In this document: positions 12,977 to 14,262 of the stretch, in pieces
How the letters are laid out: every line of letters begins with the position of its first letter
Position numbering within the stretch: position 1 is the first letter of the stretch
From: Alphaproteobacteria bacterium
GTDB taxonomy: Bacteria > Pseudomonadota > Alphaproteobacteria > RF32 > CAG-239
Direction: 5' to 3'
NCBI GenBank assembly: GCA_017939155.1
Contig: JAGAZZ010000006.1
Span: 7,564 to 71,563, forward strand
DNA: 64,000 nucleotides
Notes under the pieces: model-generated
What the model saw: the letters and a program-made list of their open reading frames with translations, nothing else
Databases searched by the model: none
Told to the model about the DNA's origin: nothing
Made by a program: the position numbers and the translations under genes

Positions 12977-13038
12977 CCCCCCGCATATTCCACAAAAACT
13001 CAAAAAGCGGAGCATCCCCGCTCCGCTTCCCTCAATCA

Positions 13039-13101
13039 TTACGCCAAAAGCGCAATAATCAATTCAAGAATAATCTTGATAATAGTAATTATCTTAACCA
13101 T
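13039..13101 (-). CDS. Type I toxin-like 20-aa peptide, copy 1 (MVKIITIIKIILELIIALLA); probably uncoupled from its SD
   Basis: The ORF is intact and the terminator (13002-13026) is present. The AGGAGG SD seen in copies 2 and 3 is missing, displaced by a ~150-nt insertion. Confidence 0.35.
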   Translation of the reverse strand: MVKIITIIKIILELIIALLA

Positions 13102-13109
13102 TCTTGCAC

Positions 13110-13253
13110 TCTTGCTTCGTAAGGTTCGATTTCATCTTACCAACTGCGCTTCGGTCAAATTACTGATAACGTTTGCTAACACGGCATTACTGCCGCACGC
13201 AAACTAACAGTAACTACAAACACACAATAAAAACAATTCACTGGATTGTTTTT
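13110..13253 (+). repeat. F element copy 1 (structured ~145-nt element) inserted between toxin copy 1 and its leader hairpin
   Basis: It starts tcttgcttcgtaagg (identical 15-mer in copy 3). It contains gcgcttcggtca and the TTTGC..[CGGCA-TTAC-TGCCG]..GCAAA helix, and ends in the AAAAACAAT-tcactgg-ATTGTTTTT hairpin. Confidence 0.6.
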
Positions 13254-13348
13254 ATATGTATGTTCCTTTCCGATAAATGCGGAAAGAAGTCCAACTCTTA
13301 AAACTAAAAGTCCTTGACTTTTGTATTTTTTAAGATTATACTGTAACC

Positions 13349-13425
13349 ATCAAGATTGAAGTTGCAATGGAACTTCTTTCCTTTGTTACAAAGACCGGTT
13401 GTTTCCCCAACCGGTCTTTCTTTTA
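13349..13425 (+). ncRNA. Antitoxin-like small RNA, copy 1
   Basis: Promoter TTGACT (13314-13319), 17 nt, TATACT (13337-13342). It has the hairpin GAAGTT..AACTTC, the motif AACTTCTTTCC, and the terminator AAAGACCGGTT-gtttcccc-AACCGGTCTTT followed by CTTTT. Ends are approximate. Confidence 0.5.
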
Positions 13426-13550
13426 TATAACTTCGGTTCTATAAAGTCAATAACAGATTCTTGTTTTGTTCTAACACCAAAATTAACTTGATAGCCTCTC
13501 CTCCCCAAGACGCAAAAAGCGGAGCATCCCTGCTCCGCTTCCCTCAATCA

Positions 13551-13613
13551 TTACGCCCAAAGCGCAATAATCAATTCAAGAATAATCTTGATAATAGTAA
13601 TTATCTTAACCAT
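13551..13613 (-). CDS. Type I toxin-like 20-aa peptide, copy 2 (MVKIITIIKIILELIIALWA)
   Basis: AGGAGG lies 7 nt upstream of the ATG. Promoter TTGACT (13823-13828 rc), 17 nt, TATAAA (13800-13805 rc), about 180 nt upstream. The terminator GCGGAGC-aggga-TGCTCCGC plus TTTTT (13514-13538) follows the stop directly. Confidence 0.55.
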   Translation of the reverse strand: MVKIITIIKIILELIIALWA

Positions 13614-13618
13614 CCTTG

Positions 13619-13652
13619 CACCTCCTTTCTGCAAATTTGCGGAAAGAAGTTG
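13619..13652 (-). promoter_or_regulatory. SD-sequestering hairpin in the toxin copy 2 leader
   Basis: The mRNA reads CAACTTCTTTCC-GCAAATTTGC-AGAAAGGAGGTG. CTTCTTTC pairs with GAAAGGAG (one G-U), burying the SD. Confidence 0.5.
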
Positions 13653-13721
13653 AAAACTCAATTTTTACCCACTATATCAAATTAGCTTGACATTTAGATA
13701 ATTATGAGCTATACTTCCAAT

Positions 13722-13803
13722 ATCTGGTAAGGAAGTTCACACACAACTTCTTTCCATTGTTGGAACAAGTCCTGCGATTCGTGGTCGCCGGACTTTTCTT
13801 TTA
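13722..13803 (+). ncRNA. Antitoxin-like small RNA, copy 2
   Basis: Promoter TTGACA (13687-13692), 17 nt, TATACT (13710-13715). It has the hairpin GGAAGTT-cacacac-AACTTC, the AACTTCTTTCC motif (13745-13755), and the terminator AGTCC..GCGA-ttcgtgg-TCGC..GGACT plus TTTTCTTTT. It is fully antisense to the toxin 5' UTR. Ends are approximate. Confidence 0.55.
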
Positions 13804-13919
13804 TATAACTTGAGTTCTATAAAGTCAATAATAGATTCTTGTTTTGTTCTGGCGGCAAAACTAATATTTCACCCAAAAACTCAAAAAGCGGAGCATCCCC
13901 GCTCCGCTTCCCTCAATCA

Positions 13920-13982
13920 TTACGCCAAAAGCGCAATAATCAATTCAAGAATAATCTTGATAATAATCATTATCTTAACCAT
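13920..13982 (-). CDS. Type I toxin-like 20-aa peptide, copy 3 (MVKIMIIIKIILELIIALLA)
   Basis: AGGAGG SD 7 nt before the ATG. Promoter TTGACT (14187-14192 rc), 17 nt, TATAAG (14164-14169 rc). Terminator at 13883-13907. Confidence 0.55.
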   Translation of the reverse strand: MVKIMIIIKIILELIIALLA

Positions 13983-13987
13983 CCTTG

Positions 13988-14020
13988 CACCTCCTTTCCG
14001 ATAAATGCGGAAAGAAGTTG
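13988..14020 (-). promoter_or_regulatory. SD-sequestering hairpin in the toxin copy 3 leader
   Basis: The mRNA reads CAACTTCTTTCCG-catttat-CGGAAAGGAGGTG, a 10-bp stem with one G-U that covers the SD. Confidence 0.5.
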
Positions 14021-14089
14021 AAAACTCAATTTTTACCCACTATATCAAATTAGCTTGACATTTAGATAATTATGAGCTATAGTAACAAC

Positions 14090-14166
14090 CATCAGGTGGA
14101 AGTTACTATTCAACTTCTTTCCAATGTTGTTAAAGACCGGTTGTTTGCCCAACCGGTTTTTCTCTT
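14090..14166 (+). ncRNA. Antitoxin-like small RNA, copy 3
   Basis: Promoter TTGACA (14055-14060), 17 nt, TATAGT (14078-14083). It has the hairpin GGAAGTT-actattc-AACTTC, the AACTTCTTTCC motif, and the terminator ACCGGTT-gtttgccc-AACCGGT plus TTTTTCTCTT. Ends are approximate. Confidence 0.55.
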
Positions 14167-14262
14167 ATATAACTTCGGTTCTATAAAGTCAATAATAGAT
14201 TCTTGTTTTGTTCTAATGCCGAAATTAACTTGACATTAACCCTCGCTCCCCTATACTTCATA

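Follow-up and report, generated by a model that had tools for sequence, protein, structure and literature searches.

What do the three direct repeats encode that lie within positions 12991-14233 of a 64,000-nucleotide (nt) stretch of DNA from Alphaproteobacteria bacterium (GenBank assembly GCA_017939155.1, contig JAGAZZ010000006.1; the whole stretch is called the window here)? An earlier sequence-only reading of the window had proposed that each repeat is a type I toxin-antitoxin-like cassette of no named family, in which the gene of a 20-amino-acid (aa) hydrophobic peptide is transcribed against a small RNA (sRNA) that overlaps its leader. Our analysis favors the same answer and puts the probability that each unit constitutes a type I toxin-antitoxin-like module from a family not named before at roughly 0.68. 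This reading is strongly backed by 19 homologous cassettes, by conservation of the promoter and terminator of the antisense RNA, by purifying selection on the peptide, by compensatory changes in the RNA and by the lack of a family match in the searches described below. The peptide is presumed to be toxic when overproduced, and it is referred to as the toxin for brevity.

The repeat array agrees in most respects with what had been described (Table 1). Units 2 and 3 share 86.8% identity over 349 nt, while the open reading frame (ORF) plus terminator of unit 3 shares 97.4% and its leader 78% identity with those of unit 1. An intact 20-codon ORF, encoding the peptide quoted earlier, was found on the minus strand of all three units, and a degenerate pattern of this peptide matched the window three times but none of 100 shuffled versions. 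The minus-strand promoters (TTGACT-17-TATAAA/G) are present in each unit; they are missing from the list of our consensus scanner because their −10 hexamer ends without the final T. On the plus strand, near-consensus promoters scoring 10 to 11 of 12 in the consensus scan were detected inside all three leaders. Each of them would drive an sRNA of 72 to 81 nt with two hairpins, antisense to the first 67 to 72 nt of the mRNA, in line with the previously suggested RNA of about 80 nt, hairpin terminator and overlap of about 70 nt. Over some 68 nt the complementarity is perfect, the sRNA terminator hairpin being the reverse complement of the mRNA 5′ hairpin, and the sRNA ends approximately 100 nt upstream of the ORF, which it leaves untouched. 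A terminator scan of the region yielded 13 terminator-like sites versus 3.3 expected, including hairpins downstream of two ORFs and of two sRNAs; those of unit 2 were seen in separate analyses. However, unit 1 is not equivalent to the other two, contrary to what had been supposed. The proposed leader of about 180 nt and the AGGAGG Shine-Dalgarno (SD) sequence in front of the ATG hold for units 2 and 3, which are complete, whereas the SD of unit 1 is split by a 155-nt insertion and its leader extends to 314 nt.

To find relatives of the array, we searched genome, metagenome and viral collections with a back-translated peptide pattern and with a second pattern covering the conserved stretch where the toxin −10 hexamer meets the 5′ hairpin; the loci retrieved in this way were then searched with a profile, which revealed further cassettes on individual contigs. 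Such a search of related genomes and metagenomes had been called for by the sequence-only reading, and it recovered 19 distinct homologous cassettes with about 10 peptide variants, from deer, mouse and human gut sequences and from IMG/VR viral contigs. The peptide pattern located a cassette in two contigs of the close relative RGIG8741 and, next to a transfer RNA (tRNA) gene, in an alphaproteobacterial metagenome-assembled genome (MAG) from mouse gut; it also matched seven contigs of gut metagenomes, of which two carry a human-gut label, and one IMG/VR viral contig, to which the second pattern added nine more viral contigs. Two further pattern matches are treated as due to chance: the units yield no blastn match in the Lutibacter sequence L005, and in the Atribacterota sequence L007 the match is confined to the ~32 nt of the search pattern itself. 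Common to the cassettes are the ORF, both promoters, the sRNA terminator, an SD-sequestering hairpin and an upstream SD mimic that can pair with the anti-SD. The ORF, of 19 to 22 codons, is intact in 19/19 cassettes, and an SD-like motif stands at the normal spacing in 18 of them, the exception being unit 1 of the window. Homologous loci in which the ORF is broken and the RNA conserved had been named beforehand as evidence that would speak against the proposal; no broken ORF occurs among the 19 units.

The conservation pattern bears directly on the question of whether the ORF is a gene. When the window is compared with the human-gut clade, identity amounts to 83% in the ORF and 42 to 47% in the leader, and the proportions of nonsynonymous and synonymous changes (pN/pS) in three clade comparisons were 0.16/0.33, 0.18/0.43 and 0.20/0.78, i.e., ratios of about 0.25 to 0.5. 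Judged by these substitutions, the peptide is under purifying selection. It is very improbable that the repeats are instead a noncoding repeat or mobile element and the 20-codon ORF a chance frame in AT-rich sequence, a view for which one can cite the extreme shortness of the ORF, its absence from the calls of the gene finders behind a collection of 15 billion proteins, and the presence of another small noncoding repeated element in the region. A chance frame would hardly stay free of stops in each of the 19 units, which span about 10 peptide variants, with an SD spacing that is fixed save in window unit 1; synonymous changes outnumber nonsynonymous ones, the ORF is far better kept than the leader, and the shuffled sequences contain no match to the peptide pattern.

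No known family was recognized in the database searches. An exact look-up of 10 peptide or ORF sequences found none among 15 billion predicted proteins, and the peptides matched no family of Pfam and NCBIfam at E values up to 10 or of PHROGs at E values up to 1. With Rfam at the gathering threshold, the window and seven related loci returned only tRNA and transfer-messenger RNA (tmRNA). When the Rfam threshold was relaxed to E values up to 10 for positions 12500-15000, none of the antitoxin families compared here appeared; the one antitoxin model listed was symR, a match that we discarded as due to chance (21.8 bits versus a cut-off of 61). A blastn search with one unit gave no match in the INPHARED phage and PLSDB plasmid collections.

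The encoded peptides fall into two classes. Those of the first, which includes the window clade, are ultra-hydrophobic and near neutral, e.g., MVKIITIIKIILELIIALLA and MIKIMTIIKIILELIIALYM, with grand average of hydropathy (GRAVY) values of 2.1 to 2.6 in the window clade. Those of the second are hydrophobic with basic residues and a basic tail, e.g., MIIRIMLIIRKIKILFYVKKS, MRIKIILIIRKIRFFLSIKR and MIIKLIIVIRKIRIYLSVKR, with a net charge of +6 or +7 and GRAVY values of 0.8 to 1.4. Strong hydrophobicity, or hydrophobicity with a basic C-terminal end, belongs together with tandem repetition to the features by which Fozo et al. searched for type I toxins (PMC2887945). Contig L010 contains two cassettes, at 10471-10760(+) and 11750-12037(−), with one peptide of each class, and contig L019 also contains two, at about 4020-4250(−) and about 10440-10700(+), with different cationic peptides; both pairs emerged from the profile search. 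Recombination has evidently joined the control module to more than one effector ORF.

Some of the cassettes lie in a mobile context. In the viral contig L008, the only one whose neighboring genes were scanned, the cassette is located between genes for a PLD-like nuclease and an Ant/Bro anti-repressor on one side and a tail-fiber gene on the other. This phage-gene setting, the contigs with two cassettes and the tRNA-gene neighbor of the mouse-gut copy fit, as far as gene order can tell, the mobile context typical of such modules. The window itself carries an alphaproteobacterial two-piece tmRNA, and ordinary chromosomal genes flank the array (M24 aminopeptidase, L17, U32 peptidase). Among named sequences it is closest to "Alphaproteobacteria bacterium" MAGs of deer-colon and mouse-gut origin, and across the cassette region it matches a 20.6-kb stretch of a metagenome contig in the European Nucleotide Archive.

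Two of the cassettes appear to have lost toxin expression. In unit 1 of the window, the SD is split into GGAAAGGA and GTGCAAGAATG, on either side of the insert, and no AGGAGG is left. The insert ends in an A-run, a hairpin and a T-run, which constitute a terminator on both strands, and because it carries this terminator it cuts ORF 1 off from its leader; the unit 1 toxin gene is probably silenced by this terminator-bearing insertion. The insertion is secondary, since the copy beside the same flanking gene in RGIG8741 has an intact SD, and the comparison indicates that unit 1 is a recently disabled copy that keeps its sRNA gene. The second case is the mouse-gut MAG cassette (L006), which looks like a promoter-dead toxin copy: at 3560-3620, its toxin promoter reads TTGACG-7-TATAAA, with a 10-nt deletion relative to the human-gut clade. 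Its ORF and its sRNA promoter and terminator signals are intact, and the tRNA gene that it abuts lies at 3717-3790. The signals for toxin expression were crippled twice independently, by the insertion and by the shortened spacer, in cassettes whose ORF, sRNA promoter and sRNA terminator signals are intact.

These losses also weigh on an explanation that we consider unlikely, namely that the peptide is not a toxin but a small membrane protein with another role, whose synthesis is tuned by a cis-antisense RNA. It might, for instance, be a phage accessory ("moron") product that serves superinfection exclusion, lysis timing or the modulation of a host membrane protein. Many family members do come from predicted viral contigs of IMG/VR, the one sampled viral contig has its cassette between accessory and tail genes, and the window peptides are devoid of a charged tail. 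Nontoxic regulatory peptides of 20 to 30 aa are known as well. Against this, tight sequestration of the SD and AUG, a strong nested antisense promoter, tandem copies and varied contexts make up the signature by which type I toxins have been found (PMC2887945), and the repeated loss of the peptide's expression signals with retention of the sRNA gene fits a harmful product.

How the sRNA could control the putative toxin is suggested by the anatomy of the two RNAs. In every distinct unit the sRNA promoter (−35 TTGAC(A/T), 17-nt spacer, −10 TATNNT) is found at the same place, its TTGAC and TAT positions being among the few invariant columns of the leader alignment, and a two-hairpin sRNA of 72 to 81 nt would start opposite mRNA nt 67 to 72. 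The minimum free energy (MFE) of the unit 3 mRNA is −106.6 kcal/mol, compared with −60.9 ± 4.3 for shuffled sequences (z = −10.7), and the sRNA folds have z scores from −4.1 to −5.6. Consensus folding with RNAalifold (11 and 15 sequences) recovered the 5′ hairpin as well as a hairpin in which the anti-SD (element B) pairs with the SD (element C), each of the two helices having several pairs in which both partners have changed. The start codon of the window and human-gut clades is buried in an invariant hairpin. Further upstream, at mRNA nt ~35 to 52, lies a purine-rich, SD-like element A, which is complementary to B plus 5 to 6 nt upstream of B. The A:B pairing recurs at the same position in every unit with differing sequences, e.g., GGAAAGAAGUUGAA:UUCAACUUCUUUCC, GAAAGGGGUUAACC:GGUUAGCCCCUUUC, GAAAGGUGUUAAUC:GAUUAACUCCUUUC and AAAGGAGC..GCC:GGC..GCUCCUU. 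Covariation of A with B was judged from the duplex energies of cognate and noncognate combinations and by a permutation test: A:B duplexes reach −21 to −27 kcal/mol versus about −9 to −12 for shuffled controls, and the cognate assignment is the single best of the 720 permutations of six sequence classes. Constrained two-state folding, in which either A:B or B:C was forced in nine units, placed the two states within 5.1 kcal/mol of each other in 8/9 units, the SD being unpaired with a probability of 0.13 to 0.81 when A:B was forced and of 0.00 when B:C was. Element A falls within nt 1 to ~68, to which the sRNA is antisense, and is therefore covered by it. The ORF, promoters, terminators and complementarities, together with their covariation, are thus read from the sequences and their comparison.

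It is somewhat unlikely that the module is of type I but its sRNA acts without an A/B/C switch, through RNase III cleavage or decay of the 68-base-pair (bp) duplex or through the anti-SD copy pairing with the SD in trans, the A:B complementarity being a by-product. Indeed, the ACUUCUUUCC of the sRNA can form 9 bp with GGAAAGGAG at the SD. RNase III also cuts extended perfect duplexes in other systems, and agrB promotes RNase III processing of dinQ (PMC5066626); moreover, equilibrium models in which the sRNA-covered region was blocked differ in direction between units. However, the A:B complementarity continues, with covariation, for 5 to 6 bp outside the SD-pairing portion of B (UUGAA:UUCAA, UUAACC:GGUUAG, UUAAUC:GAUUAA), an extension that sRNA:SD pairing does not need and that points to a selected intramolecular helix and away from a by-product. 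In constrained folding, the two states also proved near-isoenergetic and unlike in their exposure of the SD.

Our preferred reading, a type I module with a switchable leader, would then operate as follows. We infer transcription, toxicity, neutralization and the direction of the switch from the features described above. A moderately strong promoter would produce a highly structured toxin mRNA of about 275 nt, consisting of a 5′-terminal hairpin, a leader of about 175 nt, the 20-codon ORF for a very hydrophobic membrane peptide, and an intrinsic terminator. From the near-consensus promoter inside the leader, an sRNA of about 75 to 80 nt would be made that is the perfect complement of the first ~68 nt of this mRNA. 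Of the three interacting leader elements, B would close the SD by pairing with C (the SD itself) and leave it open by pairing with A, the SD mimic. Annealing of the sRNA over A would free B to sequester the SD, and no toxin would be translated. The sRNA-mRNA duplex might in addition be cut by RNase III, and the anti-SD copy of the sRNA might pair directly with the SD alongside this route or instead of it. Upon loss of the sRNA, A:B pairing would open the SD, and the peptide would be made, insert into the membrane and damage it. Switch logic of this kind was demonstrated experimentally for dinQ/agrB (PMC5066626).

Several observations weigh against this reading. In all models of the window and human-gut clades, the probability of the start codon being unpaired is at most 0.005, so some further opening step would be needed. 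In unconstrained folding with nt 1 to 67 blocked, the accessibility of the SD went up in window units 2 and 3 and down in L008. Because the sRNA-blocking models are inconsistent between units and the start-codon hairpin has to open, the direction and the sufficiency of the proposed switch are stated here as predictions of the model. The covariation rests on about six sequence classes and hence few independent events, and the MAFFT alignment puts the clades one column out of register at the A:B helix. The −10 hexamer of the toxin promoter, TATAAA, is devoid of the usually conserved final T. Unlike many type I toxins, the window peptides do not end in a charged C-terminal tail, and the host organisms are uncultured.

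To place the cassette among known type I systems, we compared it with the features of the class and of its better-known members. Type I toxins are short hydrophobic membrane-type ORFs below about 60 aa, and here the ORFs encode 19 to 22 aa; an antisense RNA gene complementary to the mRNA, with a promoter and terminator of its own, is predicted from the sequence, and the modeled mRNA is structured with a sequestered ribosome-binding site. By these features the cassette is, at the sequence level, a new family within the type I class, closest to Ldr/Rdl in layout, including the tandem repetition, and to dinQ/agrB in the logic of its leader. The sequence-only reading had likened the architecture to tisB/istR, shoB/ohsC and zorO/orzO. 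This comparison was wrong, because the cassette sRNA is nested in the mRNA, 5′ of the ORF, which is the defining arrangement of Hok/Sok and Ldr/Rdl, whereas the antisense RNAs of the three systems named are located 5′ of the mRNA, with no overlap between the two (PMC8594479).

Like Ldr/Rdl, the cassette combines a small hydrophobic ORF with a short cis-encoded antisense RNA inside the leader 5′ of the ORF (PMC8594479), and its units of a few hundred bp stand in tandem in one intergenic region (PMC2887945). It differs in that searches of Pfam, NCBIfam and Rfam linked neither its peptide to Ldr nor its RNA to Rdl, in that its sRNA reaches the very 5′ end of the mRNA with a terminator that doubles as the mRNA 5′ hairpin, and in that it occurs in a gut alphaproteobacterium or its phage, whereas Ldr/Rdl belongs to Enterobacteriaceae. 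Ldr, at 35 aa, is also longer than the cassette peptide of 20 aa. In DinQ/AgrB, too, an upstream element pairs with the anti-SD and leaves the SD open, and binding of that element by the antisense RNA lets the anti-SD:SD helix close and stops translation, as was shown by selective 2′-hydroxyl acylation analyzed by primer extension (SHAPE) and in vitro translation (PMC5066626). The cassette possesses the corresponding mutually exclusive, covarying A:B and B:C helices and an sRNA that covers A, a case of analogous logic and not of homology, and no dinQ/agrB family was matched in the Rfam or Pfam searches. In contrast to agrB, which is encoded apart from dinQ without overlap (PMC8594479), the cassette sRNA is a true cis-antisense RNA. 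Moreover, dinQ must be processed at its 5′ end (+44) to shed a locking element, and neither a lock of this kind nor a site for such processing is evident in the cassette.

The likeness to the other systems is more limited. As in Hok/Sok, the mRNA is highly structured and translationally inert in the models, and Hok/Sok likewise occurs on mobile elements, including prophages (PMC8621323). Yet the cassettes have no conserved mok-like overlapping leader ORF (in the human-gut clade, for instance, a TAA lies two codons upstream of the ATG), no fbi-type 5′-3′ helix in the MFE or consensus folds, and no match to the Hok domain in Pfam or to Sok in Rfam. With TisB/IstR-1, ShoB/OhsC and ZorO/OrzO the cassette shares the opposite transcription of toxin and sRNA, an sRNA target in the leader far upstream of the SD, and toxins that are short α-helical hydrophobic peptides in the range of 19 to 29 aa. 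The window motif KIILELIIAL presumably recalls, if loosely, the ZorO and TisB helices. In those systems, however, the sRNA gene lies upstream of the mRNA start without overlap, and the partial complementarity spans about 20 nt (PMC8594479), whereas the cassette sRNA gene is inside the transcribed leader with a perfect overlap of about 68 nt; no Rfam or Pfam match to any of these families was found in the cassette. The Ibs toxins, finally, are extremely hydrophobic and only 18 to 19 aa long. The Ibs/Sib loci are likewise tandemly repeated (PMC2887945), but the Sib RNA spans the whole ibs ORF (PMC8594479), which the cassette sRNA avoids.

Every individual feature of the cassette thus has a precedent. 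Known type I families are each narrow in host range and mostly confined to Enterobacteriaceae and Firmicutes (PMC5367252); the word Alphaproteobacteria is absent from the T1TAdb (PMC8594479), Fozo 2010 (PMC2887945) and Coray 2017 (PMC5367252) papers, and a 2025 paper names no phyla besides Proteobacteria, Firmicutes and Tenericutes. If validated, the cassette would extend the class to uncultured gut Alphaproteobacteria and to predicted phage contigs from gut samples, and it would provide a second natural, comparatively well-sampled example of an antisense-RNA-gated SD switch, useful for the study of RNA switches. It also exposes an annotation gap, as its genes of 19 to 22 aa have been called by no annotation pipeline. 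The design of portable RNA devices and the mining of short membrane-active peptides are possible uses, and the cassette may be relevant to how prophages are maintained or phages excluded in the gut. More tentatively, and with somewhat less than even confidence, we propose that it represents the first charted alphaproteobacterial type I family, spread by phages of the mammalian gut. Its nested sRNA would act as the "ligand" of a bistable A/B/C leader, and this portable kill-switch chassis, recombined with two unlike 20-aa peptides (ultra-hydrophobic near-neutral and cationic), would have evolved independently of the dinQ/agrB logic.

Table 1. Predicted features of the repeat array (window coordinates)
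Feature	Position	Strand	Remark
Repeat unit 1	12991..13491	−	toxin ORF intact, leader broken by 155-nt insertion
Repeat unit 2	13503..13869	−	complete cassette
Repeat unit 3	13872..14233	−	complete cassette
ORF 1, MVKIITIIKIILELIIALLA, 20 aa	13039..13101	−	no AGGAGG SD, upstream AAGAG only
ORF 2, MVKIITIIKIILELIIALWA, 20 aa	13551..13613	−	
ORF 3, MVKIMIIIKIILELIIALLA, 20 aa	13920..13982	−	
Intrinsic terminator hairpin 3′ of ORF 1	13002..13031	−	terminator scan
Terminator hairpin 3′ of ORF 2	13514..13543	−	
Intrinsic terminator hairpin 3′ of ORF 3	13883..13912	−	terminator scan
SD AGGAGG, element C, unit 2	13621..13626	−	pairs with anti-SD in conserved hairpin
SD AGGAGG, element C, unit 3	13990..13995	−	
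Anti-SD element B, unit 1, GGACUUCUUUCC	13281..13292	−	parted from ORF by insertion
Anti-SD element B, unit 2, CAACUUCUUUCC	13641..13652	−	can pair with SD or upstream element A
Anti-SD element B, unit 3	14009..14020	−	
SD-mimic element A, unit 1, GGAAAGAAGUUC	13370..13381	−	
SD-mimic (anti-anti-SD) element A, unit 2, GGAAAGAAGUUG	13744..13755	−	covered by sRNA
SD-mimic element A, unit 3	14111..14122	−	covered by sRNA
sRNA 1 promoter, TTGACT-17-TATACT	13314..13342	+	
sRNA 2 promoter, TTGACA-17-TATACT	13687..13715	+	
sRNA 3 promoter, TTGACA-17-TATAGT	14055..14083	+	
Predicted sRNA 1, ~76-79 nt	13349..13427	+	hairpin with anti-SD copy, then terminator
Predicted sRNA 2, ~81 nt	13722..13803	+	
Predicted sRNA 3, ~72-79 nt	14090..14168	+	
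Toxin mRNA 1 promoter, TTGACT-17-TATAAA	13422..13450	−	−10 overlaps sRNA U-tract
Toxin mRNA 2 promoter, TTGACT-17-TATAAA	13800..13828	−	
Toxin mRNA 3 promoter, TTGACT-17-TATAAG	14164..14192	−	
155-nt structured element with bidirectional terminator, inserted in unit 1 SD	13105..13262	+	paralogs 14300-14468(+), 30868-31015(−)

The element inserted in unit 1 is present in the window in three structured, noncoding copies of about 155 to 170 nt. They share the motifs CTTGCT(T/G)CGTA and AACTNCGCTTCGG(T/G)CA, two variable hairpins with compensatory changes and the bidirectional terminator (AAAAACAATTCNCYGRATTGTTTTT). No match to it was found in Rfam or in a scan of IMG/VR viral contigs. It has the look of either a dispersed sRNA gene or a mobile element of small size. 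The copy at 14300-14468 lies in the leader of a gene for an 89-aa XRE-like helix-turn-helix (HTH) protein (14601-14870), and the same site in the relative L004 is free of the element. This leader of about 340 nt starts from a plus-strand promoter (TTGACA-16-TATACT, 14230-14257) at the right edge of unit 3, which we had considered as the promoter of a fourth sRNA and rejected, as it drives the HTH gene. Besides the element, the leader contains a second terminator-like hairpin (14546-14567) just before the SD, which could be an attenuator.

On the other side of the array, two adjacent plus-strand ORFs of 25 aa (12645-12722, MNKIITYLIYILIIVVLIWLIRSFI) and 76 aa (12746-12976, MGKIITYIIYFLIIVAVYVLIRAAY...) encode hydrophobic products with paralogous N termini and are preceded by SD-like motifs. 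We rejected them as related toxins: they share only "M.KIIT.II" with the toxin, lie on the other strand and are devoid of an antisense module, and the likeness to the toxin N terminus is probably compositional. At 21175-21273(−), ARAGORN reported a "tRNA-???" with a four-base anticodon, which is probably a false positive, since it falls inside an MreC-like ORF (21015-21878). Within 30800-31350(−), downstream of tRNA-Arg(CCT) (31273-31349), three direct copies of the tRNA 3′ end and terminator (gtcccgccgctg(t/c)caccaattaa...cccccttcgagggggcttg) follow one another with about 180 to 240 nt between copies, and the third copy of the 155-nt element (30868-31015) lies between them; these repeats look like tandem att-site remnants of integrative elements.

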